Positions 36,021-58,424 of a DNA stretch of 64,000 bases are shown here, one piece after another. Position 1 is the first letter of the stretch. Each line of letters starts with the position of its first letter. Origin of the DNA: Planctomycetota bacterium (lineage in GTDB: Bacteria > Planctomycetota > Planctomycetia > Pirellulales > UBA7805). The notes beneath the pieces are model-generated. The model was not told where the DNA came from and did not search any database. It was given only the letters and a program-made list of their open reading frames with translations. The translations under genes were made by a program, and so were the position numbers. The stretch is taken from the NCBI GenBank assembly GCA_021413705.1, contig JAIOPX010000077.1, forward strand, positions 12,026 to 76,025, written 5' to 3'.

Positions 36021-36824
36021 CTACTGCGGGCCAAGCTGGCAGCCTTCACACTCCTCAGGCCGTTCGACCGAACTGGGGGCAGCGCCCACTCTGGGATGTT
36101 CAATGCCGCACAAGCTCCGTTCGGCCGCTATCAAGGCGCCGAGCAAGACGCCGACTGCTTCATAGTATCCACCAGGATTTTCGCGCCCTAACAAGCGGCC
36201 GAACGCCGGGGCCCACCAGGCCAGATGCTCGTGGAGAAACCGTCGGGCGGCATCGCGACAGATGGCGGCGCGTTGGGCACCGCCCTGATCGCCGCATTCC
36301 GCTGCCCGACGTTCCAGTCCCAGCAGGAATGCCATGAACTCCAATTCCAGGACGATATGGTCGTGCTGCTCACGGCGCTGCGGGGACGGTTCCAGGCCGA
36401 ACGCCTGATAAAACCCGCTCACGTCAGCCAAAGCGTGCGATCTCTGAAAGGTGAACTTGCTGTTGATGTAGTCCGTTTCATGTGGCGGACAGGTGCTGCT
36501 GGCCAAGAGTCCGAAAGTGGATTCAAACAGCTCATTCAGTGCGTGACGCGACGCAGGGAGACGGGCGACGACCGGGGCCGGATTCAGCTCCTCTAAGGGC
36601 TGCTCCCCGAGGGCCAACTCCGCTGACGCGGCAGCCGCTTCGTTGCGCAGTAAGTCGGCCGCGTCGTTCAGGAGCGAATTGTTTGGTAGCGACGTCAGCT
36701 CGAGCCAAGCGCCGGCCCGTGGATCCGCCAGCGCCATGGCGATGAATCGATATAGGATCTGCCGTGCCTGGCTGACGGCAGGATCCCAGGCCACCTCAAC
36801 CCGTGCATTGTCGATCGTGGTCAT
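36021..36824 (-). CDS. TorD/NarJ-family redox-enzyme maturation chaperone (delta subunit)
   Basis: It lies at the distal end of the molybdoenzyme operon. The helical protein carries a YR.IA.AL..P pattern and EFMAFL block typical of NarJ/TorD/EbdD-like chaperones. Confidence 0.6.
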   Translation of the reverse strand: MTTIDNARVEVAWDPAVSQARQILYRFIAMALADPRAGAWLELTSLPNNSLLNDAADLLRNEAAAASAELALGEQPLEELNPAPVVARLPASRHALNELFESTFGLLASSTCPPHETDYINSKFTFQRSHALADVSGFYQAFGLEPSPQRREQHDHIVLELEFMAFLLGLERRAAECGDQGGAQRAAICRDAARRFLHEHLAWWAPAFGRLLGRENPGGYYEAVGVLLGALIAAERSLCGIEHPRVGAAPSSVERPEECEGCQLGPQ

Positions 36825-36845
36825 AGCTGTTGCTTTCGTTGGAAT

Positions 36846-38141
36846 TCAGATCGAGTTGACGTGCTCTGCCGCTGGCCGCTCGAAGGTCGGCTCCTCGACC
36901 GTCACACGGACTACTTCTTCGCCAAGTTTGTTGTAGCCGATGACCGTATCATTGAAGATTTCCTGGGTCTTGCTGCTGCCATCAGGCATGGTCACCTGCA
37001 CCTCAGCGACCTTGGGCCCCTGTTTGATTTCAAAACGAAAAACGATCTGTTGGCTCGCGCGGAACAACTGCAATACGGCGAGCAGTTCACGGTCGGGACA
37101 GCTGTATTGCTCGATGGCGTGTTCCACGCCGGGACCGAACATCTGGACCAGGTAGCCGCGAGGCACCCAGCGGGGCGGGATATAGAAGCCGTTCGGCTCC
37201 GTGCCGAATTGCGGGTAGAGTGGCAGAGCAATCTTCCGCTCTCGGATCAAATAGTACAGCGGGTTCTGGGGATCCTTGGCCCACGTGCCGTCCTCGGCGA
37301 TTTTCACCAGTCCTTGCAGCCGGATCTTGCCGACGCAGGCCGCCATACAGCGCGTCTCGGCGGGAGCACCGGTGGGACTGATGGTGGGATCCTTCCCTTC
37401 GATCCGGGGGTAGCAGCCAACGCATTTTTCGCTGGTCCCGGTCGTCGGCCGATACATCGCCTTCTTATAGGGGCAGCCTTCCACGCACTTGCGATAGCCG
37501 CGGCAACGGCTCTGATCGATCAGCACGATACCGTCCTCGGGGCGCTTGTAGATGGCGTTGCGAGGACAGGATCCCAGGCATCCCGGATAGGTGCAATGGT
37601 TGCAGATTCGGGCCAGATGAAAAAACCAAACTTTATGCTCGGGGAGTTGCGTGGAGGCACCAAATTGTTCCGCACGCTGGAATGTGCCCCCGGTGGCCGT
37701 GTCTTCGTGGATGTTGGGACTCCGCCACTCATCGTCGGTCGGCAGGTAGCCCAGCGCCTGTTGCGGGCCGTCGGGGCCGGGCTTCTTCTGCGCCGCCTCG
37801 AAGATCGTCAGACCCTCGAACGTGCCATAGGGCTTGCGATCCGGTTCGGCTGTAGACTTATTCCAGACCTGCTGGCCGGGGTTGGCCTCTTCAAGCATCG
37901 CGAGCAGCTTCGCGTCCCAATGTTGAGGATAACCGCCGTAGGGTTTGGTTTCGACATTATTCCACCACATTAATTCCTGACCCTTGGAGAACGTCCAAGT
38001 GCTCTTGCATGCCATGGTGCAGGTTTGGCAGCCGATGCAGCGATTCGGATTGAAGACGAAGGCAAACTGCCATTTCGGGTGCCGTTCTTCATGCGGATAA
38101 CCCATTTCCCGCCCGAGCTGCCAGTTATAGACGTTGGCCAT
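36846..38141 (-). CDS. Fe-S beta subunit of a type II DMSO-reductase-family enzyme (NxrB/NarH-like)
   Basis: CIGCQTCTMACK, CNHCTYPGCLGSCP, CRGYRKCVEGCP and CVGCYPRIEG. MWWNNVETKPYGGYP block. 431 aa. Confidence 0.88.
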   Translation of the reverse strand: MANVYNWQLGREMGYPHEERHPKWQFAFVFNPNRCIGCQTCTMACKSTWTFSKGQELMWWNNVETKPYGGYPQHWDAKLLAMLEEANPGQQVWNKSTAEPDRKPYGTFEGLTIFEAAQKKPGPDGPQQALGYLPTDDEWRSPNIHEDTATGGTFQRAEQFGASTQLPEHKVWFFHLARICNHCTYPGCLGSCPRNAIYKRPEDGIVLIDQSRCRGYRKCVEGCPYKKAMYRPTTGTSEKCVGCYPRIEGKDPTISPTGAPAETRCMAACVGKIRLQGLVKIAEDGTWAKDPQNPLYYLIRERKIALPLYPQFGTEPNGFYIPPRWVPRGYLVQMFGPGVEHAIEQYSCPDRELLAVLQLFRASQQIVFRFEIKQGPKVAEVQVTMPDGSSKTQEIFNDTVIGYNKLGEEVVRVTVEEPTFERPAAEHVNSI

Positions 38142-38153
38142 GGTCGCCTTTCC

Positions 38154-38525
38154 TTACGCGTTAGGCGGCAGTGTAATCTGCACCAGCCGCTCGGAGAGCG
38201 GTTGACTGTGCGTGGTGGTCACTCTCACAACTCCGCAGCGCGCCAGGATCGCCCTGATCCGCTCTTTCAGCGGCTCCTCCCCCAAGAGCCTCCACAAACC
38301 GTGGAACCCCGTATAAAAAGGGTCGCGGGACAGTGTCATGAGCGCGTCGAGCCCATTTCCCATCCGGGCATATTCCTCGACCAGCAGGCGCAGCATCAGT
38401 TCCGGGTCACCATCGACCTCGACACCGCTGAGTTCCAGAGGATCCTCCGGCAGCATCTCGCGCGAAACAGGATGCACCTTGGGCCCAATGTTGTTCAGAT
38501 CATCTAGCATGACACTGCTCCCCAT
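38154..38525 (-). CDS. small hypothetical protein between the alpha and beta subunit genes
   Basis: 123-aa ORF, tightly packed (20 nt after the alpha stop, 12 nt before the beta start). No signal peptide or motif recognised. Confidence 0.5.
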   Translation of the reverse strand: MGSSVMLDDLNNIGPKVHPVSREMLPEDPLELSGVEVDGDPELMLRLLVEEYARMGNGLDALMTLSRDPFYTGFHGLWRLLGEEPLKERIRAILARCGVVRVTTTHSQPLSERLVQITLPPNA

Positions 38526-38545
38526 GCGATTTCGTCACGTTCGGG

Positions 38546-41500
38546 TTATTCTTTGATCTTGATCAGCGCGCCGGTCAAATACGCTTCACTCTCGGGCGTC
38601 TTTTCACCTGGACTATAGCCGCTCTGCCCCGGCTTCCAGACGCCCACCCCGTCCAGGCCGCCACTTTCCGCCTTGGTGATTCGGACGAGCGTTTCTTTCG
38701 GCACCGTGTTGATGGCGTGGTTGTCGATATCCGCACCAAAGGTGAACGCCATACTGCCGGTCTTCTTGTGAAACAGGCTATCCGTCTGGTGCATGGGCAT
38801 CATCCAGTTGCGGGTGATGCTTTGATGCGAGCCATAGCGGTAGCTGGCCTGGTAACCGGTTTCCGCAGACAGGGCACGGCCGTCGGCGCGGGTTTCATGG
38901 GCGCGCACGGTTCGTTCCGTGGCAATCCAGCCCGTGTGCTTCATGATCGTGAACGTGTAGGGGAGCCCCGGATTGAGCTTCACGCGGACCATGCAGCGGA
39001 AGGCTTTATGGCGCGGACCTTTGTCGTCTTTCCAGCCGATGTAGGGGCGATCCAGTTCATTGGCGTCGACGTAGACATAGTCCCCTTCATGCAGTCCCAG
39101 GTCGGCGGCCGCCTGGGGGTTCATCTGAATCTGTCGATCCGCCACGCCTGGCGCCCGCTTGTCGGTGCGGTGCGGATCGCCAAAGTTATCGCTCCACAGC
39201 CAGTGCCAATCGACGGTGGACCAGGATGAGTGGGTCGAATGGCGGCTCTTGGGTGTGCTGCAGAAGAATTGATATCCCTGCTTCCAAAGCGGGTTGACGG
39301 TTTGCTTGACCTCCGCCCAGGGCAGCTTGACGTTGCGCACTTGGCGCAAGTCAGGATCAGCCGTGTCGGCCGGAATACCAAAGTCAGCGGGTCGCACAAA
39401 TGGGCTGGTAGAAACGATGACGTTCGGCAGATAGGGAGTCGCCTCGACTCCTTCGCGGTGGACGATCAGGTTTTCGCCATACTCGATAGCCTCGGGCAGA
39501 TCGCAATAGCTGGCCAGCCGCCCGCAATCCGTGTAGAACGGGATGGAATCGTGTACTTGCTCCCAGAACGGTACGCGCGGGTAGGTGCGAAACAGCATCA
39601 GTGCCGCGCCGGGCTCGCCTCCATATTCTCCGGCAATCATCTTGTCGACCTGATAAGGACCGTCCTTGCCGCGCGTCGTCGTGGAATTGTCAAAGACACG
39701 TTGCAGATAGACTTTGGCCTTTTTCTCCGTAACAAATTTGAAATAATCGGCGAACCGGCGATCGCCGGTCTTCTTCGCCAGGGCACGGGCGACGCCGGCG
39801 AACACTTCAGCGTCGTCCACCGAATCGTGAACCGGCTTGATGCCTCCCTTCCAGACCTGGATGAAGGGATTCGAGCAGGAGCCGCCGCATTCGTAGTCCT
39901 CCTGCTCGACCCAGGAATTGACCGGCAGCACCACGTCGGCGTATTCGGCGCTGCCGGTCCATTCGATCTGTTGGTCGACGATCATGTCAACTTTAGGCAG
40001 CACGTTGACAATGATATTGTAGATCCACTTAGACTGGTTCAAGAAGTTGGCGTTGTTGTACCAGATCACCTTGGTGGGGGTTGGCAGGTGCGTCTTGCCA
40101 GTGAAGTTGCGACGGCCGCCTTTGGGCAAATCGACCGTCGTCGTCCTCTCTCCACAGGCCCAGTAAGACGGATCCTCGCCATCGCTCAGGTGTCGCAGAT
40201 GTTCGTGCGTGATTCGCGTTGCTTCGTCGAGGACGGGATGGAAAGGATCTTCATGCGTGTAACTGCCGACTCCCGGCCCGCTCCAAGGGGAGGCCTGCAT
40301 CAGCGCTCCCTTGTAGTTGCCGGCCCAGGTGAAGCAGCCGGCACCATGCCGGCCGATGTTTCCGGTGAGCATCACGGGCAGGTAAGCGGCTCGATTGTGG
40401 AGGGTGGCATGGAAATAGTGGTTGACACCTTCACCGATGTGGATCGCTACGGGATGGCCTGCCTCGGTCGTTTTCCAGATGTCCTCGGCCAAGCGACGGA
40501 CCAGATGTGCGGGCGCGCCGGAGATCTCCTCGACCGTTTTTTCGTCGTAGTCCCGCAAATGCCGCTTATACATTTCCAGGATCGGCATCACTTCAACCTG
40601 GCGACCGTCGGCGAGTTGGACCTGGTAGGTTCCTTCCAAGGCGGCCGCCACATTCAAATTCTTGCCTACCTCATCACGGCTGATGAAGACCACTCGCTTG
40701 CCAGCGGTGTCCCACACACAAAAGTCGCCGATGCGCCGCCGCTGTGAATCCGTCAGCCCCTGGATTTTGTAGGAGGGACCGGCCGAGATGTCCTTGGGGC
40801 GATAGCCGGCCATCACGTCCTCGGGCCGCAGCCTGCGAAGCGTATCGGTTCGCACGAGCAGCGGGAAATCCGTGAACTGGCGGCAGAAATCTGGTTTGTA
40901 CCAGTGGTTGTCGAGCATGATTTTCGTCACGCCCAAGAGTACCGAGGTATCGCTTAGCCCCGGCCGTACGCCGATCCAGTAATCACTCTTGGTGGCCGGG
41001 CAGTTGTATTCCGGGGCGATGTCCACCAGTCGGCCGCCGCGCTCCATAACTTCATTGAGCCAATGCGACTCGGGCATCTTGTTTTCGATCAGGTTCTTGC
41101 CGATTTGGATCACCAGCTTGGAAAACCGCAGGTCATTGAAATCCATGTCGGCGGTCTGCAAGCCATGCACAAACGGCTGCCCGGGCGCCTGGTCGCCGCG
41201 CCAGGTGTACTCGTTCCAGTCGCGCGCGCCGTGCGCTTTTTCTGCCGGCACGCCGCGGACATGATGATCCAAGAGTCCCAGCAGGTTGGCGAAACGATAG
41301 ATGCCGAACTTCCCCACGATGCCGTGGATTGGCAAGTTGGAGCCCATCTTGATCACGCGTGTGCCGGCCCCTTCCACCTTGTCGATCATCACCTGCTCGT
41401 AGCCGTCGCGCTTCAGTCGCTCGACACCATCAGCGCCGCTGTACGTGCGGGACACCGCTTCCAGACCGGCCGCCACATAGTCGGATATCTCCCCCCAACT

Positions 41501-42016
41501 GAGCCGCACATAGCCATCGTTGCCCCGGTCATCGAATTTGTACTTGCTCCGGAGTTCAGGGTTCTCCGAAAGCGAGGGGAACCCGGCGTCGGCCCAATCC
41601 TTCCATCCTTTGCGCAATACCGGGCCCTTCAGCCGGTACGGGCCATAGACCCGCCGTTGCATGGTAAATCCCTTGGGGCAGCCACGAGGATTCCAGGCCT
41701 TGGTGGCCTTGTTGCCATACAGATCGCCGTAGCGGTCATGATCGTAATTTTGCTCGCTGCGAATCATCACGCCGTTGCGGACATACGCTCGCAGCCGGCA
41801 CATGTGCGTATCGTTCGGAGCGCAGACCCAAGTAAAGGTCCGGTCATAGCGGTACTGATCAAGATAAATCTTCTCCCAATCGCGGCTGGGATAGGCGCCC
41901 AGTGGGCTTTCACCGCTGACAGGAGCGAACGCCCAGCCCTGCGCTCCCTGAGCCAGCAACACGCTACCGCCGGTAGCCGCGCAAGATTTCAGGAAGTGAC
42001 GTCTTGAGATGGTCAT
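38546..42016 (-). CDS. molybdopterin alpha subunit, Tat-exported (NxrA / periplasmic NarG-like)
   Basis: MTISRRHFLKSCAATGG..AQGAQGWA is a Tat signal (start 42016). VCAPNDTHMCRLRAYVRNGVM is the N-terminal Fe-S region. About 1156 aa, larger than Pcr/Ser/Ebd alpha subunits. Confidence 0.88.
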   Translation of the reverse strand: MTISRRHFLKSCAATGGSVLLAQGAQGWAFAPVSGESPLGAYPSRDWEKIYLDQYRYDRTFTWVCAPNDTHMCRLRAYVRNGVMIRSEQNYDHDRYGDLYGNKATKAWNPRGCPKGFTMQRRVYGPYRLKGPVLRKGWKDWADAGFPSLSENPELRSKYKFDDRGNDGYVRLSWGEISDYVAAGLEAVSRTYSGADGVERLKRDGYEQVMIDKVEGAGTRVIKMGSNLPIHGIVGKFGIYRFANLLGLLDHHVRGVPAEKAHGARDWNEYTWRGDQAPGQPFVHGLQTADMDFNDLRFSKLVIQIGKNLIENKMPESHWLNEVMERGGRLVDIAPEYNCPATKSDYWIGVRPGLSDTSVLLGVTKIMLDNHWYKPDFCRQFTDFPLLVRTDTLRRLRPEDVMAGYRPKDISAGPSYKIQGLTDSQRRRIGDFCVWDTAGKRVVFISRDEVGKNLNVAAALEGTYQVQLADGRQVEVMPILEMYKRHLRDYDEKTVEEISGAPAHLVRRLAEDIWKTTEAGHPVAIHIGEGVNHYFHATLHNRAAYLPVMLTGNIGRHGAGCFTWAGNYKGALMQASPWSGPGVGSYTHEDPFHPVLDEATRITHEHLRHLSDGEDPSYWACGERTTTVDLPKGGRRNFTGKTHLPTPTKVIWYNNANFLNQSKWIYNIIVNVLPKVDMIVDQQIEWTGSAEYADVVLPVNSWVEQEDYECGGSCSNPFIQVWKGGIKPVHDSVDDAEVFAGVARALAKKTGDRRFADYFKFVTEKKAKVYLQRVFDNSTTTRGKDGPYQVDKMIAGEYGGEPGAALMLFRTYPRVPFWEQVHDSIPFYTDCGRLASYCDLPEAIEYGENLIVHREGVEATPYLPNVIVSTSPFVRPADFGIPADTADPDLRQVRNVKLPWAEVKQTVNPLWKQGYQFFCSTPKSRHSTHSSWSTVDWHWLWSDNFGDPHRTDKRAPGVADRQIQMNPQAAADLGLHEGDYVYVDANELDRPYIGWKDDKGPRHKAFRCMVRVKLNPGLPYTFTIMKHTGWIATERTVRAHETRADGRALSAETGYQASYRYGSHQSITRNWMMPMHQTDSLFHKKTGSMAFTFGADIDNHAINTVPKETLVRITKAESGGLDGVGVWKPGQSGYSPGEKTPESEAYLTGALIKIKE

Positions 42017-42064
42017 GTCAGTTGTTCCTTGAACCATCCTGCCTGACGGCCGTATTGCGGCTCC

Positions 42065-43792
42065 TCAGTGGGGTGGCTTCTCCAAAAGCAAATCCTGCCA
42101 GATGCTGATCAACTTCTGTCCGTTGCGGTCGCGATGATCCCCATCCCAGACTGCCAGCGCAATCGAGGCCCGCTCACCCGGCACCAACGACACGCCGGAT
42201 GCTCCCTCAACGACGAGCGGGCGCGTCATCACGACGGTCCAACGACCCTCCCGCCATTGCCCGCGGGCGGTCACCAGGCGACTCTTCGGCAACCGGAACG
42301 CCACGCTTCCCGGCCCGCTGGCCGTGAGCGACGAACTGCCGGATGCACCGGCGGCCGGCACAACAGGGTTGCCGCTGGCCTTGGCCGGCAGCGAAATATC
42401 GGGTTGTTCCTTCCGCTGCGTGCCAGGCCGCTGATATTCGGCGGTGGAAACGGTTTTTTCGCTCAACGGATATTGATCCACCACGGTGCGAGGATAGATC
42501 TGCTCGACATCGGGCGGGCCGGTCGGCGGTTCCGCCTGCCAAAACCACACGTCAACCGGCGCGTCGGTCGAGCCCATCCCCAGAAATGGCTCGACTGTGC
42601 CACGGTACAACTCGACTGCGATCGCATCGCGGAACGCCTGGGTGCGGGCCGCGTCGCTGTTGGATGTCGCATCCTGCCAGCGGAGCCGGATGGCAATGTC
42701 GCGTCCGTCGTGGACCGCTTGCACAGTCAGCCCGGGATCAGCGTCATCGCGCCACCACAGCGGTGTCATTCGTAGCCGCACCGCAGGACTCATCTCCCAT
42801 TGCGACGAGGCCTGATCTCCGGGCAGTTTAGCAACATACTTGGCCACAATTTGCTCACGCTTCAATAGCGACGCTTCGCGCTGTGCATCGGTGGAGAGCG
42901 ACCGCAGAAAATTCACGAGATCGGTTATCTCTTCCGGTTTAAGGTTGGCACTGGCGGGCATGGGAGTACCGGGCATCCCTAGAGCGATCCGACGATAGAA
43001 GGAGGTTGGGTCCGGGCTCCCCTTGTAAATGCCACGGGTCAAATCGCGGGGGCGTGTCGGCAATCCCTCCGCGTCAACCATCTTCTGCTGCCCATCTCCG
43101 CGCCCTTCGTTGCCATGGCACGAATGACAACTCTGCTTGACATACAGCTCCTTGCCGCGAGCGATACTCTTGGCATCCGGGGGGCCGATGGCCGGCACGG
43201 CGAATACCGCGGCGGGCAGGGTGCGGTTCTCGACGAATTGTTTGACTTCTTGCTCGTCAATTTGCTCTTCCCCCTGCTCCTTCAGGGTACGGATGATTTC
43301 TTCACGCGCGCCCTCGCGACGAAATCGCAACACTTCATCCACCAGCAGCGATCGATCCCGCGGGCTCAGATGGGCCCAGGAAGGCATAGCCGATCCGGGC
43401 ATTCCTCGCACCAACATCGCCTCGATATCCTCCCGAGATGGCACGCCGTTGACCGTGCTGACAAGCCGGTAAGGACTTGCACGGAGGTTGCGTGGCTTGG
43501 GGTAGATAAATCTGGCGGCCAGACCCTGCCCGTCTCCTTGATCGCCGTGGCACGCCGCACAGTGCCGGGTGTAGAGTTCGGTAGCGGTGAGAGGTTTGGT
43601 GGCCACAGCTACAGGGACCGCAGTTTCTCCCGAAGTTCGCTGTCCGCCGACCCCAGCATCACCCCTCGTCGTGTCCTGACGTGGGGTCGGTGGGGGAGCG
43701 GATGGTTGACAGCCGACAGCCATCCACGCCAGGAATGCGCAGATCATGAACTCAATTCTGTCGCGTTTGAGTCCTTCCGCCATCATTCCCAT
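42065..43792 (-). CDS. gamma subunit: lipoprotein with two cytochrome c domains fused to an EB_dh/DOMON-like haem-b domain
   Basis: The lipobox-like WMAVGC is followed by CAACHGDQGDG and CHSCHGNEGRG. The C-terminal ...IALAVWDGDHRDRNGQKLISIW is typical of ethylbenzene-dehydrogenase gamma-like domains. Confidence 0.75.
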   Translation of the reverse strand: MGMMAEGLKRDRIEFMICAFLAWMAVGCQPSAPPPTPRQDTTRGDAGVGGQRTSGETAVPVAVATKPLTATELYTRHCAACHGDQGDGQGLAARFIYPKPRNLRASPYRLVSTVNGVPSREDIEAMLVRGMPGSAMPSWAHLSPRDRSLLVDEVLRFRREGAREEIIRTLKEQGEEQIDEQEVKQFVENRTLPAAVFAVPAIGPPDAKSIARGKELYVKQSCHSCHGNEGRGDGQQKMVDAEGLPTRPRDLTRGIYKGSPDPTSFYRRIALGMPGTPMPASANLKPEEITDLVNFLRSLSTDAQREASLLKREQIVAKYVAKLPGDQASSQWEMSPAVRLRMTPLWWRDDADPGLTVQAVHDGRDIAIRLRWQDATSNSDAARTQAFRDAIAVELYRGTVEPFLGMGSTDAPVDVWFWQAEPPTGPPDVEQIYPRTVVDQYPLSEKTVSTAEYQRPGTQRKEQPDISLPAKASGNPVVPAAGASGSSSLTASGPGSVAFRLPKSRLVTARGQWREGRWTVVMTRPLVVEGASGVSLVPGERASIALAVWDGDHRDRNGQKLISIWQDLLLEKPPH

Positions 43793-47462: not shown

Positions 47463-48095
47463 CTACGCCGCCTCGGGTGTGGGGTTATCGCCGACAAACC
47501 CTTCCCAGGCTTCCTTCAGTTCAGTGCGTAGCTGCGAAACGCGGCCAGGGCTCAGATGGAACTTCCGTGCGGTCTTCTGGGTGGTTTCCCCCGTGGCCAG
47601 AGTCGTGGCAACCTTTCGCTTCTGGCCTGACAAGCTGCGGAGCCAGGATGCAAAGTCGATTCTGCTCGCGGCCGTCTCCGCCGGCCCGGCAGTGCGATCC
47701 TCGATCAGCACTTCTGTCCAAGCCATTTCTTCGTCATCAAAGTAATCCAACCGATCTATGTGGACTCCCTTGTTCAACTGGCAGTGGACGGAAGTCACGT
47801 CACGAACATTGAGAGAACCTCCCAGGCGCCGACCGGCACGGACCTGTGCCACACCATAGCGAGCTAACGCCGAGGGGTAGGCTACTTGTTCCTTCTTCAA
47901 CTCCACCAGCCGGCGATAAGCGGCCATGGCATTGCAAATCACCTCCTGCACGGCCTCCGCGCGGGCTTCCGGGTCAAGCTGGCGAAATGAAACCGCGGCG
48001 TGACGGCGGATCAGCGGCAGCATGGCCAGAAATTTCTTGTGCCAGCGAGGAACGGAACGCTTCGACGACCGAATGGGCTTCGCAACCGCAATCAT
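47463..48095 (-). CDS. sigma-70 region-4-like / ECF-sigma-like DNA-binding protein
   Basis: ORF 47463..48170, likely start MIAVAKP at 48095. The C-terminal LSGQKRKVATTLATGETTQKTARKFHLSPGRVSQLRTEL resembles a sigma region 4 HTH. Confidence 0.45.
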   Translation of the reverse strand: MIAVAKPIRSSKRSVPRWHKKFLAMLPLIRRHAAVSFRQLDPEARAEAVQEVICNAMAAYRRLVELKKEQVAYPSALARYGVAQVRAGRRLGGSLNVRDVTSVHCQLNKGVHIDRLDYFDDEEMAWTEVLIEDRTAGPAETAASRIDFASWLRSLSGQKRKVATTLATGETTQKTARKFHLSPGRVSQLRTELKEAWEGFVGDNPTPEAA

Positions 48096-48494
48096 AGGGA
48101 CGATCTCCTGTGGGTAGAGACCGCCCCGGACGGGGGCGGTCATGTTTGGGAAAACACAACCGCCCCGCACAGCACGAGGCGAACGACGACAACAATCAAT
48201 GATGAGTCAGCGTGCGATCGGGCGTCGGGTGGATTCGCAGCACCTCGGGTCCACAGACATCTCCCCCATGAGCCGACCACAATCGGCAATCTCAGGACCG
48301 GCAGAGGCTACGATGGCCGGAAAACCGCAGTCGGAATGGACTATCGAAAGATTCGTCGTGTCCCTTCCGGCCGCAGTGGGAGATAAAATAAAGGGATGGG
48401 CCGAGTTCGGCCGGCTTGCGTATAGCAAACCGAAGGTCACCAAGCGGGATTTTCCCCAAAGCTGGGCGGTCTGCAAGCAACAAGGGTTGGTGGA

Positions 48495-49646
48495 ATGACG
48501 AGAGAACAAGAAGTTGATGCAATGATGCAAGAATTAGTTGCTAGCCGGCGGGTGCTTATCAACCCGGTTGGTATCCGGCCAGCGAGTGAAATGACAAGAG
48601 AACAAGAAGTTGATGCGTTTTTGAAAGACCTCTACGAGCGTCGGCGGATACTTCCTAATCCGCCTATGTTGTTCGACCAAGACAAATCCGAGAAGGCGTT
48701 CTGTCCCACGGGTCCTGGGGGTCGGGTGGATAACTCCTGTCCGCCAAAGGAGGCTAAAATGAACATGCGATTATCCTACGACGATCCCCTAACGGCAGTT
48801 TTTCTACGAACGCTGGCATGGGAACTGTACGTGGCTGACCGTAAACTACTCGTCAAGGAAATCGCTGAGAAGTTAGTGCAGACCGCCAGAGGAGATTTGG
48901 GCCTTCTGAAAAACAAGGGAGGTGCCCCCCACGCCTTTATTCAATCCCTACAAAAACCGGGGAAACAGGGGAAACAACTGCTGTCACGCGCCCCAATAAG
49001 ACCCTTGGAAAGGGGATGGCAAGACGCGTGGAGACTCCTGTATCTGCCAAGCCATCGATTCGTCAGGATGTTGTCGGACAACCCTGTCTGGACGCACCTG
49101 TCAGACAAAACAAAAAAAGCCGAGCCACTCCAGTTGTCGCTTTCACTTCGTACACCTGCTGCGCCAAAATTACTGGTCACGGTCGGAAGTGGCCCTCCAA
49201 CAAAATCCTTGCTGGATAAAGCACCATGCGGTCTCTACTTCTTACGCGAAACTGAAGGTCTTTACGTCGGGCAAAGCGATGAATTTGACGTGCGTTGGCG
49301 CCAGCACACAAAAAAGAATTTGAAGTGGTGGGTCTTTATTGCCCCCGAAGAGGAAAACACTCATTTCTACCGTGATGCATTGTATGCTGCTGAAGGGTTA
49401 TTGATATCCTTCTGGACCGAAATTTGCACCACAACGAACTGGAAGCGCAGCAAAGATAAGAAGCCCGCTTTCACTTTCCTTCAGCCTGCGATACTGCTCG
49501 TTGAGGCGGCTTCCGCTGCGATGATTTGGCTGATTCGGGAGAGAAGGGATCTTGGACTCAAACCATGGGAGCTGCCATTCAAGAGCTGTCGTGCCGACCA
49601 TTGGCCGAGCTGTTATTTAAGGCCGTTCAACGAGATGGTTGATTAA
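48495..49646 (+). CDS. GIY-YIG nuclease-domain protein with a duplicated N-terminus
   Basis: GLYFLRETEGLYVGQSDEFDVRWRQH...E is a GIY-YIG core. The N-terminal MTREQEVDA module occurs twice, at 48495 and 48591. Confidence 0.6.
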   Translation: MTREQEVDAMMQELVASRRVLINPVGIRPASEMTREQEVDAFLKDLYERRRILPNPPMLFDQDKSEKAFCPTGPGGRVDNSCPPKEAKMNMRLSYDDPLTAVFLRTLAWELYVADRKLLVKEIAEKLVQTARGDLGLLKNKGGAPHAFIQSLQKPGKQGKQLLSRAPIRPLERGWQDAWRLLYLPSHRFVRMLSDNPVWTHLSDKTKKAEPLQLSLSLRTPAAPKLLVTVGSGPPTKSLLDKAPCGLYFLRETEGLYVGQSDEFDVRWRQHTKKNLKWWVFIAPEEENTHFYRDALYAAEGLLISFWTEICTTTNWKRSKDKKPAFTFLQPAILLVEAASAAMIWLIRERRDLGLKPWELPFKSCRADHWPSCYLRPFNEMVD

Positions 49647-50348
49647 GACAACAGCAGGGACCCATGATGACCGCTGTTGAAGCCGGTGACCGACGAATTG
49701 TTCTTCAACTCGGACCAGGGGTACTCTTGCAGTAACCGGCCCAATCGGACCAGACCCGTTCCTGATGGGCCGATTGGGCCCATTTGCGTACACGGTGGAT
49801 GCTGTCCCCGGAAATCCTTGCTTGTACGCCCGCGGCCAATAGCAACGATGCCGAAGTTTGCCGCAGGTCGTGGAAGCGGATTCCCAAATGCTCGTTTAAC
49901 AGGGCTGCCAACCCAGAGATTCTCTGGCGCTCCACAGAACGAGTGCCGTGTGATGCGGTCGGCAACAAGACCGCGGAGGCGAGAATCAAGCCGCACCAGA
50001 CACCGAAATTGTCGGTCGGCAAAGCTAGGCGGCCGTACCAGGTGGTTATGCCGCAGTTGGCAGGAATCTTTAGGTCAACCTGTCACCGCCAGATTTTCAG
50101 CACGTCGCCAGTAATCGGGTGTGTACGTCACTTCGGACGATTATTAAGATGCTCGAACTGGCCATGAAGCACCTCGGGCTGATCGTGGCCGACCCGAAGC
50201 TGGCAAACCAGTACAATCTGAGTCTCGACGCCACGACCTCGGATAACTTCTTGGCCACCTTGCTGAAGCAAGTCGAGGAGACGCGCTCCAGGAACGTAAT
50301 CGATTCACGGACGATAGAAAGCCGGACCAATGGAACACTATGAGCCAT
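49643..50348 (-). pseudogene. frameshifted tyrosine recombinase
   Basis: IRFHDLRQTSASLLLAAGV (HxLR box) lies in frame 49705..50022. An N-terminal core-binding-like piece is in 50097..50348 and the C-terminal piece is in a third frame. At least two frameshifts. Confidence 0.55.
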
Positions 50349-52647
50349 CGCTTTCCGACCCGGTGAGCTTCTGGCCCTCTGCTATCCGGCCTTCAGCCTT
50401 ACCACTCTTTGCACCGTGTTCTTGCAGAATGCGTACAAGATTCTTGGGGGGATACGGAAATTGCTCCACCAGATCGAGCGGAGTTCGTCCCGTTCTGTCC
50501 CTCGCATTGACATCAGCACCGGTTGTTAGGAGATACTGTATGACCTCATCCCGTAGCCGGGGCCAAGCAGCTTTGTGCAAAGGAGTCTGTCCCCTGTTGT
50601 CTTTCACTTCAATATCCGCACCGTGGTCTACGAGCAGACGTGCGGTTTCTATCTGACCCCCTCCGGCCGCCCAATGCAAAGGCGTGCTACCACCCTTTTC
50701 GGCACGTAAGAGTCGCGGGTCCGACTTCAAATACTCTCGCACCGCTTCGCACATGCCTGATCCGGCGGCAATGTGAATATCGAGTGTGGCCCCTTGCGCA
50801 AGCAGAACATCAGCCGTATTCCGATTGCCTATTCTTGCCGCGACTTCTATCGGCGTTGCACTGTTAATATCTCTCTTTGCATTCACGTCCGCACCATATT
50901 TCAGCAGTAGTGCTACTATCGCTGCGACATTTGAACATCGCGCCGCTGCGTGAAGTGGAGTTTCACCATCGCTATCTTCCGCGTTGACGTCTGCTCCATG
51001 GGCGAGTAACTGTTCGATTACGCCTTTTTTTCCGACTTCCTTTTCAAAGGCAAGCGCCGCCGCCGCTTCGTGAAGCGGTGTTTTACCATCGCCATCCGCC
51101 GCTTTGACATCGGCTCCGTGGGTCAGCAATAGTTCAACCACGTCCTCTTTTGAGCCATTCGCCGCTTTGTGAAGTGGAGTTTCACCATCGCTATCTTCCG
51201 CGTTGACTTCGGCTCCATGGGCCAGCAACAGTTCGATCACGTCCTTTCTTGTCGCAAGATGCAGTGGCATAAAACCGTCGCAATCTTGAGCGTTAACCTC
51301 AACTCCATCGTTTAGCAGTTTTTGCACGAGGTCGGTTTGGTCGTGCTCAGCGGCAAAATGAAGTACTGTCTTTTCTTGGTCATCGATTGCGTGCGGATCT
51401 GCCCCCTTTGCGAGCAGCGTCCGAGCTGTTGCGTACGCGAATTGGGATAATGCGTGGTGGAGTGGAGTTCGACCAGTGGAGTCGCGTTTATCAACGTCTG
51501 CACCGTGGGCGATAAGAAGTTCCGCTATCTCGCTTAATTCGGTCTCGCCAATTGTGTCAGCAACATGCAGTGGAGTTCGACCGCTATTGTCGGTGCCATG
51601 TATATCGGCCCCGTGTGAAATTAAGAGATCGACAACGCCGGTCCTCCCGTTGGTAGCTGCCACATGCAGGAGAGTGCTACCGTCAGGAATTCGTGCGTTT
51701 GCCGTGCTGCCTTTGCTTAGATACTCCCTAACGATTTTGACGACGCCACCTTTAACTGCGGCGTGCAATAGCGTCGTTCCGTCGTCTGCCGTGATATGAA
51801 TGTCTGCTGCATTGGCGATCAGGAAGTCCATGACGTCTTCATGGCCATTAGCTGCCGCCGCCAGAAGAGGCGTCCATCCGAGGAGCGAGCGAGGTGGCTT
51901 GCCAAGATTATGTCGCCCATTCACTGAAGCGCCATGAGATAGCAGAATCTTGACGACCTCAATATGACCGCTAGAACATGCGAAGTATAAAGGTGAATAT
52001 CCATAGGTCGTTAATACATCCGGCCTCGCACCATGTTCAAGCAAAAACTTTACCACTTCTGCATGTCCGTGTTCCGACGCTTGGTGCAACGGCGATCGTT
52101 TCACATCGCGACGGCATGCGTTCACATCAACACCTGCTGCGAACGCCCTCTTCGCCAAATCCAGAAGTCCGCCCGTTGCTGCGCCGTAGAGGATTGTTTC
52201 TTGCGGTTGTGTTACGGCGGTCAGATTAGCCCCTTGTGCAACCAGGATGTCTACAACCTCTGCGTGTCCACACCATGCCGCCTCAAAGAGGGGAGTTTTC
52301 CCCGCAATGTTTGTAGGATCAACCGCAGCTCCATATTCCAGGAGTACTTGTGCGACGTTCGCATGGCCATGTTCCGCTGCAAAATGGAGAGGCACTTTTT
52401 CGTAACGTGCTTCTGCATGGACCTGGTTAGGGTTTGCGGCCAGAATTGCTCGAACGGAGTTAACGTCTCCCGCGCTGGCCGCCTCGTGGATGTCTCGTAT
52501 CAGCGCAGCCAAGCCGGTATTGGCCAATTTTTCCAAACGCGCCAGATCGGCAAGACCTCTCGATACGAGCGTAGCCGAACGCAGTGCGATTTCAGTTTTT
52601 GTCACAGGCACTATTGCGCGTCCATCGTTCGACCGGGATTCACTCAT
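50338..52647 (-). CDS. ankyrin-repeat protein (about 20 ANK repeats)
   Basis: Repeated G.TPLH.AA..GH...V..LL..GA.VN units throughout. The ATG at 52647 lies 6 nt after AGGAGG and overlaps the J-domain gene stop (ATGAGTGA). Confidence 0.9.
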   Translation of the reverse strand: MSESRSNDGRAIVPVTKTEIALRSATLVSRGLADLARLEKLANTGLAALIRDIHEAASAGDVNSVRAILAANPNQVHAEARYEKVPLHFAAEHGHANVAQVLLEYGAAVDPTNIAGKTPLFEAAWCGHAEVVDILVAQGANLTAVTQPQETILYGAATGGLLDLAKRAFAAGVDVNACRRDVKRSPLHQASEHGHAEVVKFLLEHGARPDVLTTYGYSPLYFACSSGHIEVVKILLSHGASVNGRHNLGKPPRSLLGWTPLLAAAANGHEDVMDFLIANAADIHITADDGTTLLHAAVKGGVVKIVREYLSKGSTANARIPDGSTLLHVAATNGRTGVVDLLISHGADIHGTDNSGRTPLHVADTIGETELSEIAELLIAHGADVDKRDSTGRTPLHHALSQFAYATARTLLAKGADPHAIDDQEKTVLHFAAEHDQTDLVQKLLNDGVEVNAQDCDGFMPLHLATRKDVIELLLAHGAEVNAEDSDGETPLHKAANGSKEDVVELLLTHGADVKAADGDGKTPLHEAAAALAFEKEVGKKGVIEQLLAHGADVNAEDSDGETPLHAAARCSNVAAIVALLLKYGADVNAKRDINSATPIEVAARIGNRNTADVLLAQGATLDIHIAAGSGMCEAVREYLKSDPRLLRAEKGGSTPLHWAAGGGQIETARLLVDHGADIEVKDNRGQTPLHKAAWPRLRDEVIQYLLTTGADVNARDRTGRTPLDLVEQFPYPPKNLVRILQEHGAKSGKAEGRIAEGQKLTGSESDGS

Positions 52648-53425
52648 GTCGCGCCTCCTTTTCGATCGCATTTAGATTATGTTTCGCAGTCTGTATGTCA
52701 CGGTCTAAGGTCGCAATCATTTCAGCCAATAGATCACGCCCTTGTTTCTGGGCTTCTTCCACTCGCGTTTTTAGTTGAAATAGCTCGCTGCTCCCGACCT
52801 CTGCAATTTCTGAGGTGATCTTTTCGATTCGCTTTCTGGCCTGGGAAATCCTACGAATCGTACGAACGAGTTCCGCCCCCACGTCGTCACCATCCACCTG
52901 ATCAGGACTCGACTGCCATTCACGCAGAATCTCAGCTACAGCGGCCTCATCACAATCCTCGAATGCCTGGTTGAGCCGCTGCATGGCCCTTTCCCGAAGA
53001 CGTCTGCCGGCCTCGTCGGTCGCTAGATCGGGATGGATACCCTTAGCGGCATCGCGATAGAGCTTCTTTAGCCGTTCAGTTGGTGTAAAGGCGTGATCAG
53101 CCGCGCTCGCGTCCATGCCACGAGTGGCTGCCTCAGCGTCGTCCGCAGCCCGCCGAGCTTCAAACGCTGCGTCCTGGGCAGCACGGTCGCCGGGGTGCCG
53201 GCGTGCGTGAACAGCGGCGATTAAGGCATTCAGATTATCTAGTTCGGCATACCGACGACCCACCGTAGCGTAATATCGCTGCCCAAACGAATGCACCTCA
53301 GCATTGAGAGTTGCAATCTCAAGTTCACGTCGGCAAAGTTCTTCTTGCAGCTTTGACAGCTCATCTCGCTTACATGCCAGTTCCTCTTCTTCGGGTGCCG
53401 GGGCTGGACGTAGTGAAGATGTCAT
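52640..53425 (-). CDS. J-domain (DnaJ-like) coiled-coil protein
   Basis: LKKLYRDAAKGIHPDLATDEAGRRLRERAMQRLNQAFEDCD contains the HPD tripeptide. Coiled-coil-like regions flank it. Confidence 0.8.
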   Translation of the reverse strand: MTSSLRPAPAPEEEELACKRDELSKLQEELCRRELEIATLNAEVHSFGQRYYATVGRRYAELDNLNALIAAVHARRHPGDRAAQDAAFEARRAADDAEAATRGMDASAADHAFTPTERLKKLYRDAAKGIHPDLATDEAGRRLRERAMQRLNQAFEDCDEAAVAEILREWQSSPDQVDGDDVGAELVRTIRRISQARKRIEKITSEIAEVGSSELFQLKTRVEEAQKQGRDLLAEMIATLDRDIQTAKHNLNAIEKEARHE

Positions 53426-53531
53426 TTTAGTCCTCTCAAACCAAGCTGGACGAACCGGTTCCTACATCACGTGTTGACAGTCCGCACGGCTGCCTCCGCT
53501 GTCCCGCGAAGACGGGACCCACTCAACAACC

Positions 53532-56657
<3,126 letters not shown>

Positions 56658-56666
56658 ACTTTGCCC

Positions 56667-57677
56667 CTAATTCAAGGCAGCTTCGGAAGGTATTGCGGTC
56701 AACGTCTTGACACGCTTCGCAAATACGGCCGTAAACTTCTCCAAATTCTTCAAAAGCCACTCGTGGTACGCGGGCCACTCGGCACGGTCGTCGAAGTTCG
56801 CGGATCTCTTCACGTAGATTTTGCTTTGCTTCTTGTTTGGCGTTTCTGCCCAAATGAGAGGCCCGTCGAAGTTTGCTTCAATCACTGCTTTTGAAACCTC
56901 TAATTGCCCAAAGTAGTTTTTCGCGAACTCATCCGATAGGACGAGTTCAACGCGCAACTGGTGGCTATCAGGAGTCGCAGATTCGGTATCCTGTGTTGCC
57001 GCAATTGCCACGAGGGCGAACCCGCTTCTGCCGATGGAAACGGTCATCCACGCTTGCGGCAATGGCTTGGTCGGCTTGACGACCGAGCCACGGTCCAACA
57101 CAAACTCTCTAAAACTCGTCCAAAACTCAAACTGTAACTGTTTAGCGCCAGTAAGTTCTCCCTGTTCAACATTCTTCTTGACTTGCGTTACCGTCTGCGT
57201 CCAGTTGTTGGGGGCGCAGGCGAGGTTGAACTTGGGTGCTGCGGCCGACTCTCCAATCTTCCAAACCTCAACTTCCAGTCCGAAGAAATTAAAGTCCCCA
57301 GTCGTGATCTCGTTGAGCCAATCCACGGCTGCTCGATGTTCGTCTGTAAAACGGCTGGCAATCCAAATGATCGTGACGGCCTTCAATCCTGCGGCGTAAG
57401 TAATAAGCTGCCCAAGATGGCAGTGATCCGTTCGTTCGAGTTGATTCTCGACTAGTACCCAGTTTCCGGTGATGGTGTCCTTGCAAAGAATGTCCGCGCG
57501 AAACGGCCCCACATCTTTCTCCTGGGCCTCCACCTCCAGTTCCAAGCCAATAGTGTCTCCTAGTAGTTGGATGTTGGCTTCCTCGGCAAGCCAAGGCGTA
57601 AAGTCATTGGCCTCATTCGTCCACACCCCGCGTATATCGACTTTTTCGAGTTGGCTCAGCGAGATAGAGGTTGGCAT
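56667..57677 (-). CDS. PD-(D/E)xK-like nuclease / DUF4268-like protein
   Basis: Start is MPTSISL at 57677. GPFRADILCKD...WVLVENQLERTDHCHLGQLITYAAG is a D...E.Q restriction-endonuclease-fold core. It ends 9 nt before hsdR. Confidence 0.55.
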   Translation of the reverse strand: MPTSISLSQLEKVDIRGVWTNEANDFTPWLAEEANIQLLGDTIGLELEVEAQEKDVGPFRADILCKDTITGNWVLVENQLERTDHCHLGQLITYAAGLKAVTIIWIASRFTDEHRAAVDWLNEITTGDFNFFGLEVEVWKIGESAAAPKFNLACAPNNWTQTVTQVKKNVEQGELTGAKQLQFEFWTSFREFVLDRGSVVKPTKPLPQAWMTVSIGRSGFALVAIAATQDTESATPDSHQLRVELVLSDEFAKNYFGQLEVSKAVIEANFDGPLIWAETPNKKQSKIYVKRSANFDDRAEWPAYHEWLLKNLEKFTAVFAKRVKTLTAIPSEAALN

Positions 57678-57808
57678 AATCACTAGACCCTTTGCAAAAG
57701 TAATCGATAGGCGATGCAGTGAGAAAGTTCTGCGCTCGGCAGCTTCGGCCACCGTGCGTTCTCTAGGGTGGGAAGTGTGGGATACAGGTCAGATTCTCTT
57801 GACTGTTG

Positions 57809-58321
57809 TCATGGTTTGCTAATTTTGCTCCATCGAGAAATGACGGCCTCGCGCCATCCCCGGATCATCCGGACGAACTCCTCAGTAAGTTGCTCATCCA
57901 TCTCTTCCTGTTTTACGTCGAAGTCGGTCATGATTGGCAGCGTGAAGCGATCTGCCCATTCGAGGTAAGATTCAATCAATCCTCGGGCGTGTGACTCGTC
58001 TTCCTCCCCACCATCGAACACAACCCACTGAAATCCCTCCGGCCAACTAGACTGCATTGCGCTGAATTGGGCATCGCCCAGCGATTCCAGCTCCGATTGG
58101 CATGGCAGGCAGTGATAGAGCTGCCCGTCTATCCAATTGGATTGAATATCACCGCTCACATCCTCATTCGCGCTAGGTTGAAGATCAGAATCTAGCGGGC
58201 GACTGAGTAAAAGGCGGCATCCCACGACGGGCAACAACGCACAACGCGCAGACTTGTCCGCCAGCCCGCACAAACGGACCAGCAATTCAGCACCTGTGGA
58301 ATCTGCCGTGGGTTCAAGCAT
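57809..58321 (-). CDS. hypothetical protein with an acidic C-terminal half
   Basis: ORF 57809..58354, likely start MLEPT at 58321, which overlaps the stop of the hsdS remnant (ATGCTTGA). The C-terminal region is D/E-rich. Confidence 0.45.
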   Translation of the reverse strand: MLEPTADSTGAELLVRLCGLADKSARCALLPVVGCRLLLSRPLDSDLQPSANEDVSGDIQSNWIDGQLYHCLPCQSELESLGDAQFSAMQSSWPEGFQWVVFDGGEEDESHARGLIESYLEWADRFTLPIMTDFDVKQEEMDEQLTEEFVRMIRGWREAVISRWSKISKP

Positions 58322-58424
58322 GGTTCTTGGCGGCCTCTGTCTCACGCAACTCACCGCTCAGCAGCTTCGGCAGCAGCGAGTCAGGTAGGGCGGGGTCTTC
58401 GACGAATGATTGGTTGAGCATCAT
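58314..58424 (-). pseudogene. remnant of an hsdS 3' end (36 codons)
   Basis: It encodes [36 protein letters not shown]. Bases 58347..58378 match the intact hsdS tail 58858..58889 at 31 of 32 positions. Confidence 0.55.

Follow-up and report, generated by a model that had tools for sequence, protein, structure and literature searches.

We analyzed a 64,000-nt stretch of DNA from a Planctomycetota bacterium (contig JAIOPX010000077.1, hereafter the window), with a focus on two overlapping minus-strand genes adjacent to a Type I restriction-modification (R-M) operon. The upstream gene (52640-53425) is an open reading frame (ORF) encoding an all-helical protein of 261 aa, which we refer to as the J-hub, or hub, and which is the conserved component of the module described below. 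The downstream gene (50338-52647), which we refer to as the cargo gene, encodes a 769-aa protein consisting of an N-terminal leader followed by an ankyrin solenoid. A sequence-only reading of the locus had described two overlapping genes of 261 and 769 aa, and the ORF coordinates agree with that description. The longest possible cargo ORF would have 777 aa and begin at 52671; the start at 52647, which was the one chosen in that reading, finds support in over 100 homologous leaders whose initial Met falls at the same alignment position. The translational-coupling junction between the genes (52640-52660, minus strand) comprises a Shine-Dalgarno sequence, the cargo start codon and the hub stop codon. 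The cargo ATG (52647-52645) and the hub TGA (52642-52640) form the 8-nt overlap ATGAGTGA, found at 52640-52647 as had been claimed, and the perfect AGGAGG reported earlier is part of a Shine-Dalgarno sequence AAGGAGG at 52660-52654, 6 nt 5′ of the cargo ATG, so that the junction reads AAGGAGG-cgcgac-ATGAGTGA.

The hub gene is separated by 106 bp from hsdR (53532-56657), which lies upstream of it and matches TIGR00348 (E = 1.4e-175). The operon to which hsdR belongs contains hsdM, hsdS, a 181-aa ORF, a DUF4268/PDC-S11 gene and hsdR; the spacing and the Type I R-M identity (hsdR, hsdS, hsdM) given in the earlier reading were both correct. The pair had also been thought to be A/T-rich. Its guanine-plus-cytosine (GC) content is indeed lower than that of the window (54.2% vs 57.6%), but only modestly so, at the 8th percentile of equal-sized windows, and the pair is no outlier. 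A scan of positions 49900-53700 for promoters and terminators yielded none on the minus strand. For the freshwater sample of origin we found a single DNA run and a very small metatranscriptome, and the latter had no words in common with the locus.

The N-terminal part of the hub is a long helical hairpin (aa 11-102; 53120-53395, minus strand), formed by helices 11-76 and 81-102 in an AlphaFold2 (AF2) model. Family alignments reveal a conserved motif in it, TPEE.EL...ELA.RELDLATL.AEL..FE..Y...VG.RYAELD, and it had no match in Pfam or the PDB except generic coiled coils. The hairpin is followed by a divergent J-domain-like core (aa 113-171; 52913-53089, minus strand), recognized by a sub-threshold Pfam DnaJ match, by profile matches in the PDB and by AF2, and composed of helix II (LKKLYRDAAKGI), the HPD signature, helix III (RERAMQRLNQAFE) and helix IV. 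The HPD can be read directly in the sequence as the codons CAT CCC GAT (H131-P132-D133; 53027-53035, minus strand), and lies within GIHPDLA at aa 129-135. The C-terminal part (aa 182-260; 52646-52882, minus strand) is a three-helix region (helices 182-212, 214-227 and 232-260 in AF2, with a predicted local distance difference test, pLDDT, above 90) in which L186, R188, R191, R199 and I203 are conserved in family alignments, and is a candidate docking surface for the leader of the cargo protein. The AF2 model of the hub, computed with the family alignment, contains only helices (pLDDT 87.8, predicted template modelling score 0.69), of which 117-130, 138-156 and 160-171 correspond to J-domain helices II, III and IV.

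The J-like core is conserved at positions through which J-domains contact Hsp70. All 114 aligned hub relatives have H131, P132 and D133, and the HPD is kept in 155 of the 156 hub ORFs found at 160 related loci. The residues Y123, R124, M148, N152, A154 and Y155 show little or no variation in the 114-sequence alignment, with Y123 and R124, which are preceded by K119/K120, conserved to at least 90% and M148 invariant. When the hub and DnaJ are aligned on the HPD, Y25, K26 and F47 of DnaJ fall on Y123, R124 and M148 of the hub, and the helix III segment INEAY of DnaJ also falls on conserved hub positions. Y25, K26 and F47 of DnaJ are Hsp70-contacting residues, as established by DnaJ mutagenesis and by the structure of the DnaK-J-domain complex. 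A search of all PDB sequences with a hub-family profile returned top matches that were all J-domains (DNAJB, auxilin, CbpA; best E = 1.2e-4), and alignment of the family with the single E. coli DnaJ J-domain in hhalign gave a match of 24 columns around the HPD (probability 15.8%), too weak to count as proof. The Pfam DnaJ match is confined to profile positions 14-51 of 63, that is, to helices II and III, and a precomputed PF00226 match exists for about 15 of 120 hub relatives. A G/F-rich region, a zinc finger and DnaJ_C, which are the marks of class A/B DnaJ and of CbpA, gave no Pfam or NCBIfam match in the hub. We therefore regard the hub as a new helical protein that contains a divergent J-like motif, and not a textbook J-domain.

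Hub relatives are abundant. We obtained over 750 full-length matches at 41-52% identity, nearly all of them 255-275 aa long (the window hub matches itself at E = 1.3e-159). When 1.84 billion representative proteins were searched exhaustively with a profile, 908 clusters were recovered at E ≤ 1e-30, a number that rose to 2275 at E ≤ 1e-10, each being a representative cluster at 50% identity. The matches in genomes come from Planctomycetota, Acidobacteriota, Chloroflexota, Nitrospirota, Cyanobacteria, Bacillota, Desulfobacterota-type lineages, Armatimonadota, Omnitrophota and others, the phyletic spread of the module being patchy. The name "molecular chaperone DnaJ" is attached to the hub in some sources, while in most it has no name.

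In order to describe the genomic context of the hub we used the 160 related loci, drawn from genomes and metagenomes, of which 159 have room downstream of the hub. At 127 of these 159 loci the hub gene is directly followed on the same strand by an ORF whose product begins with the same leader as the window cargo, and about 7 further loci have weaker leaders at a relaxed threshold; the overall proportion is about 80-86%. Hub-to-cargo distances lie between -22 and +64 nt, with a 4-nt overlap as the most frequent arrangement (42 loci). The pair, which the sequence-only reading knew from a single locus, is a genuine and conserved two-gene module. We define this module by an HPD-bearing hub homologue, a same-strand gene at about -22 to +64 nt from the hub stop codon, and a leader at the start of the product of that gene; all three are present in the window pair. 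Among neighboring genes other than the cargo, none is conserved across the loci.

The leader of the window cargo occupies aa 1-40 (MSESRSNDGRAIVPVTKTEIALRSATLVSRGLADLARLEK; 52528-52647, minus strand), where a leader hidden Markov model (HMM) matches aa 1-39 with E = 8.7e-11, and we propose that it is a docking tag. Its consensus is M-S-[DE]-x(6-8)-[LI]-[VI]-P-S-x(4)-L-x(2)-R-S-S-x-L-[VI]-x-R-G-L-x-x-L, in which R30, G31 and L32 reach 90% conservation or more across 52-68 leaders. Outside the ORF adjacent to the hub, the leader HMM matched only second or third cargo genes arranged in tandem. The cargo had been described as consisting almost entirely of ankyrin (ANK) repeats, which is true of aa 52-744 but not of the first ~47 aa, which are conserved leader. 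In pairwise nucleotide comparisons of conserved leader columns, identity at codon positions 1, 2 and 3 was 0.53, 0.79 and 0.28, respectively. Because position 2 is the most conserved (0.79) and position 3 is at random level (0.28), the leader is under selection at the protein level. We also considered whether its conservation could instead stem from an element in the RNA or DNA, or from the overlapping of the two genes, and rejected this, as the overlap comprises only 8 nt and codon position 3 is at random level. A leader-profile search of a 5.8-billion-protein collection gave 4 short matches (64-76 aa), the word-index method being unsuited to a 40-aa motif, and a query with aa 1-140 of the ankyrin protein returned nothing but generic ANK proteins that aligned over the repeats. 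Leader-only mini-proteins of 64-76 aa are encoded directly after some hubs (L021:1659-1883, L075:2564-2764, and P0121-P0124); these could be competitors, regulators or decayed cargo genes. At one locus (L164:8367-8462) the automatic gene call starts the cargo after its leader, creating a false intergenic gap of ~95 bp. Gene calls that truncate the leader may be one reason why the module went unnoticed.

Downstream of the leader the cargoes are highly variable. In the window, the remainder of the protein is an ankyrin-repeat solenoid of roughly 20 repeats (aa ~52-744; 50416-52494, minus strand) identified with Pfam (Ank_2, E = 2.5e-140, 457.9 bits; Ank, E = 1.1e-123, 396.3 bits, with 14-15 PF00023 matches across aa 52-744). 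Comparison with NCBIfam models of Legionella-type Dot/Icm effectors (AnkY, AnkH and others) gave repeat-only matches, with a best score of 257 bits against a cut-off of 600. Among 118 adjacent cargoes, we found TPR in 28, WD40 or WD40-like propellers in 24, LRR in about 19, receiver domains (REC) in 10, Sel1 in 6, ANK in 4 (L019, L033, L042 and L122), GAF-GGDEF in 3, FGE-sulfatase in 3, sigma-70 in 2 (L010 and L013), and WG repeats and a LigA-type OB/zinc finger in 1 each; a few are small proteins without a known domain. A J-domain with an ANK protein is therefore not the defining partnership that it was first taken to be, since ANK is found in only 4 of the 118 cargoes and the shared element is the leader; the J/ANK pairing is a rare variant of a general design. 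Two cargoes carry the linker and substrate-binding domain of Hsp70 right after the leader (L090:907-1443 and L042:10404-11735, the latter also counted under ANK), matching positions ~381-516 of the HSP70 profile with E of about 1e-38 to 1e-40; in L042 this domain is followed by ankyrin repeats. For an Hsp70 client-binding domain to occur beside a J-hub and without its ATPase is already unusual.

In rare natural proteins the hub is fused to a cargo domain: P0217 (hub and LRR), P0227 (hub and TPR) and P0240 (hub and REC). The domain types in these fusions are those of separate cargoes, and none of the three proteins retains a trace of the leader. A frameshift that merged two genes would have retained it, and its loss therefore indicates that the fusions are real. 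Fusion proteins without a leader are also the pattern expected if the leader tethers the cargo to the hub, which argues for such a function. At several loci, two or three leader-bearing genes occur in a row. The clearest case is L161:5001-9387, where a fusion of a Ser/Thr kinase to the hub is followed by three leader-bearing genes (a 205-aa protein of unknown type, an LRR protein and a TPR protein); as judged from this arrangement, one hub can serve several tagged proteins. L161 adjoins genes for a 1232-aa nSTAND-type NTPase and a reverse transcriptase. Other hubs (P0156, P0229 and P0234) also have N-terminal Ser/Thr kinase domains, and some (P0127, P0241 and P0042) have an N-terminal DUF6804 or hydrophobic extension, which suggests that membrane-anchored versions of the hub exist. 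In one hub subfamily, a gene for a 221-aa protein without Pfam match is coupled upstream of the hub gene through a 4-nt overlap, forming a three-gene cassette that we found in two unrelated contexts (L162:7339-9702 and L163:7339-9723).

Our preferred explanation, which we hold at even odds, is that the pair belongs to a widespread type of two-gene module working as a split class-C (type III) J-domain protein. In such a module, the J-like motif of the hub (helix II, HPD and helix III) would bind ATP-bound DnaK/Hsp70 and trigger ATP hydrolysis. Translational coupling through the gene overlap and the Shine-Dalgarno sequence would favour the synthesis of hub and cargo in stoichiometric amounts, and the cargo would attach to the hub non-covalently through its ~40-aa N-terminal leader. 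The ankyrin solenoid of ~20 repeats would most likely bind a specific protein target, and either this target or the ankyrin protein itself would be brought next to the J-motif, where DnaK could act on it. The comparisons show the module, its leader, the variety of cargoes and the leader-less fusions; binding of the leader to the hub, recruitment of DnaK and the nature of the client are the steps that we infer. Cargoes with an Hsp70 substrate-binding domain, and the predominance of protein-binding solenoids among the cargoes, favour the hub and cargo acting as such an adaptor.

Several observations weigh against the split J-protein model. The hub scores only 17.0 bits against Pfam DnaJ (PF00226; E = 0.0064), below the cut-off of 27.8. 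The HPD and the helix II/III residues are conserved, but with this score the bona fide J-domain of the sequence-only reading has to be restated as a J-like motif; the recruitment of DnaK/Hsp70 proposed there is plausible given that the HPD signature is kept. In the AF2 model residues 104-110 are disordered and no separate helix I is evident, and a Foldseek search of the PDB with the whole hub model gave only generic coiled coils, none at E ≤ 0.001. No gene for DnaK or GrpE is linked to the module among the neighbors of the related loci, and the REC, sigma-70 and GAF-GGDEF cargoes suit a regulated output better than a client adaptor. Leader and hub similarities are correlated overall (Mantel r = 0.655), but when only pairs that differ in cargo class are compared the correlation almost disappears (r = 0.106). 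We attribute it to common ancestry and rejected it as independent evidence of co-evolution.

The regulator cargoes could alternatively be explained by a chaperone-titration switch in the style of sigma-32, in which the cargo itself is the client: the hub would read the leader and pass the cargo on to DnaK, which would hold the cargo inactive or unstable until unfolded proteins, arising from stress or infection, drew DnaK off and the ankyrin, REC or sigma-factor cargo was released to act. Sigma-70 (L010, L013), REC (10 loci) and GAF-GGDEF (3) would be sensible outputs of a switch of this kind, the HPD is conserved, and by our own reading the hydrophobic core and basic flanks of the leader (L-V-R-R-G-L) loosely resemble DnaK-binding peptides. 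We nevertheless consider the switch unlikely, as fusions without any leader are hard to reconcile with the leader being a DnaK-binding handle, and as most cargoes are protein-binding solenoids, with one Hsp70 substrate-binding domain, and look like recognition modules and not outputs. The weakness of the J-like signal raises a different question, namely whether the segment is a relic that does not engage Hsp70, with the hub being a coiled-coil scaffold or localization factor for leader-tagged proteins. A DnaJ score under the Pfam threshold, structural matches to generic coiled coils only, and hubs that bear DUF6804, a membrane domain, at the N-terminus or are fused to a kinase would all fit a scaffold. 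However, retention of the HPD in 155 of 156 hubs and of the helix II/III positions over many phyla is hard to understand without selection for contact with Hsp70, and the cargoes with Hsp70 substrate-binding domains link the module to Hsp70, so that a relic seems to us very unlikely. A chance overlap of two unrelated genes or an annotation artefact has in its favour only that ankyrin proteins occur frequently and that the nearest ANK matches of the window cargo are generic. The pairing recurs at 127 of 159 loci in many phyla, the leader common to the cargoes is located exactly at the junction, and fusions exist, which leaves this explanation with practically no credence.

We also weighed whether the module could be an anti-phage or conflict system, in which the variable solenoid would sense or sequester an invader protein and the J-hub would recruit or divert DnaK. 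The window pair lies between a Type I R-M operon, with its PDC-S11/DUF4268 gene, and an integrase remnant; the spread of the module is patchy; the three-gene cassette occurs in differing contexts, adjoining an integrase and a transposase at L162 and among housekeeping genes at L163; and L161 is beside an nSTAND NTPase and a reverse transcriptase. In addition, the cargo repertoire (TPR, WD40, LRR, ANK, Sel1 and FGE-sulfatase) and the host phyla overlap those of published conflict systems (PMC7159879). Set against this, no defence gene recurs beside the module. The 137 nearest flanking genes at 80 genome loci were mostly housekeeping genes (MreB, PntB, chorismate-binding enzymes, peptidases and outer-membrane proteins), with only scattered PIN (3), HEPN (2), AbiEii-like ATPase (2) and methyltransferase matches, a few toxin-antitoxin-like genes and a few mobile-element genes. 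Where contexts were annotated, the module was located among ClpS, EF-P and AccBC (L163), between LpxK and an integrase-transposase pair (L162), and near a two-component system (L164). No nuclease, pore or NADase-type effector was present among the 118 cargoes, and no relative of the hub was found in 2.9 million viral contigs (IMG/VR). In PADLOC, the hub had no significant match (best E = 0.004, to the JetC coiled coil); the ankyrin protein matched PDC-M72A, "Ankyrin" and MzaA through its repeats only and far below their cut-offs, and neither the partner genes of PADLOC ANK systems (e.g., MzaB-E) nor the sigma-70 domain of MzaA are present. The roles in defence, counter-defence or toxin control suggested by the sequence-only reading thus find no backing in heterogeneous flanks, the lack of viral relatives and cargoes without a toxin-type enzyme, and we regard a conflict function as decidedly unlikely. 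The meaning that had been given to the R-M neighborhood falls with it: related loci have no recurrent defence neighbors, and given that comparison offers no support for defence, the location beside the Type I R-M operon looks coincidental, a local feature of a variable region.

To our knowledge, bacteria are generally credited with a handful of J-domain co-chaperones, namely DnaJ, CbpA, DjlA, HscB and DjlB/C. A specialized J-protein gene beside the gene of a specific partner has precedents among them: in HscB-IscU-HscA, IscU is the client delivered to Hsp70, and the modulator CbpM is encoded immediately downstream of cbpA. The module resembles these systems in arrangement, but has no sequence relationship with HscB or CbpA (no HSCB_C, DnaJ_C or MerR-like match), and whereas those systems have one fixed partner each, here a portable tag is found on many partners. 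DjlA is, like the hub, a bacterial J-protein outside the DnaJ/CbpA type, and its membrane anchoring recalls the DUF6804 hubs, but it combines a TerB-like domain with a C-terminal J-domain, and the hub has neither this architecture nor a sequence match to it. Short portable tags that lead to one conserved partner are known from the cargo-loading peptides of encapsulins, the encapsulation peptides of microcompartments and dockerin-cohesin pairs. The likeness of the leader to these is a functional analogy only, as the module has no shell protein and no sequence similarity to them, and unlike their receptors, the receptor here carries a putative chaperone-recruiting motif.

The closest relationship in design is with class C J-proteins that have a fused client-binding domain (DNAJC3, DNAJC7 and bacterial DnaJ-TPR), in which a J-domain is likewise combined with a protein-binding solenoid that defines Hsp70 recruitment, and to which the rare hub members fused to TPR, LRR or REC are similar. 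The module differs from them in that its halves are normally separate polypeptides, proposed to be joined by the dedicated ~40-aa leader, in that the cargo is exchangeable across at least 15 domain types, and in that the J-motif sits in the middle of the hub and is not a terminal four-helix domain. A survey of J-domain proteins built on InterPro J-domain matches (PMC10410713) lists fused DnaJ-TPR architectures but nothing like the module; most of the hub family fails the InterPro J-domain models. The EAD-coupled systems described by Kaur, Burroughs, Iyer and Aravind (2020; PMC7159879), within a set of conflict systems whose variable effectors are of the "superstructure-forming repeat" and FGS kinds, follow the same grammar, with a constant core gene and an adjacent gene whose product joins a short adaptor at the N-terminus to a highly variable domain of the repeat or FGS type, and occur in similar host phyla. 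However, EADs are homotypic, with the same domain on core and effector, and the core is an NTPase, vWA or peptidase protein (PMC7159879). We found no copy of the leader in the hub when the leader HMM was run against 270 hub-family and other collected proteins, and no NTPase, vWA or peptidase core and no conserved third gene in the module loci. The Hsp70-linked systems of that study (PMC7159879) consist of a GAP1-N2 GTPase, HSP70, GrpE and FNIII-DnaJ, and also differ from the module. No model for the helical parts of the hub or for the leader exists in Pfam-A (2025), NCBIfam (2026) or PADLOC, and we found no description of the module in the open-access literature, which leaves room for a paper elsewhere. 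The statement of the sequence-only reading that no such two-gene system had been described holds for Pfam, NCBIfam, PADLOC and the searchable literature, and the module is apparently undescribed: a class-C J-protein realized as a docking system.

More generally, we tentatively propose, with somewhat less than even confidence, that the module is a plug-and-play system for Hsp70 targeting, widespread in environmental bacteria, in which the J-hub is the receptor, the leader is a portable 40-residue tag, and any tagged protein is placed under DnaK control, with the fused Ser/Thr kinase adding a further level of control in some lineages. Catalogues of J-proteins rest on domain models that the hub family mostly fails. 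If the hub does recruit DnaK and the leader does dock, the portable tag would be a new way to diversify Hsp70 targeting in many phyla and at least 908 clusters, and a bacterial counterpart of the expansion of eukaryotic class-C J-proteins that relies on docking and not on the fusion of genes. The hub could then serve as a proteostasis-sensing signaling or immune hub, and the leader would be a short peptide with which any protein could be directed to a defined scaffold that recruits chaperones. The locus also corrects a misreading, in that lying beside a restriction system does not make an ankyrin/J-domain pair a defence system.

The surroundings of the pair contain several other features. Downstream of the cargo gene is a tyrosine-recombinase remnant (49705-50022, minus strand) with the motif RFHDLRQT. 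It had been described as a frameshifted tyrosine recombinase; the HDLR motif supports the family assignment, but what is left is a short remnant without an intact N-terminal part (Phage_integrase, E = 0.1). No tRNA gene was found near it within 40-64 kb of the window. The region from 47 to 64 kb has the look of a variable island, its GC content being patchy (52-63%). Within the R-M operon, the DUF4268 gene, a very strong match to a candidate defence family (PADLOC PDC-S11, E = 8e-119), and the unannotated 181-aa ORF (together 56667-58354, minus strand) are inserted between hsdR and hsdS. A 383-aa ORF (48495-49646, plus strand) with a weak GIY-YIG match (E = 0.0027) lies between a gene for an ECF-like sigma factor (47463-48170) and the integrase remnant, and its N-terminus contains MTREQEVDA twice, about 32 residues apart. 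Farther away, a four-gene cluster (36021-43792, minus strand) encodes a molybdoenzyme of the type II DMSO-reductase family. Its products are an alpha subunit of 1163 aa that has a Tat signal, an Fe-S beta subunit of 431 aa, a gamma-cytochrome c fusion and a TorD-like chaperone. All of them score well under the equivalog cut-offs (NarG, EbdA and others), and the enzyme is therefore divergent and possibly nitrite-oxidoreductase-like.

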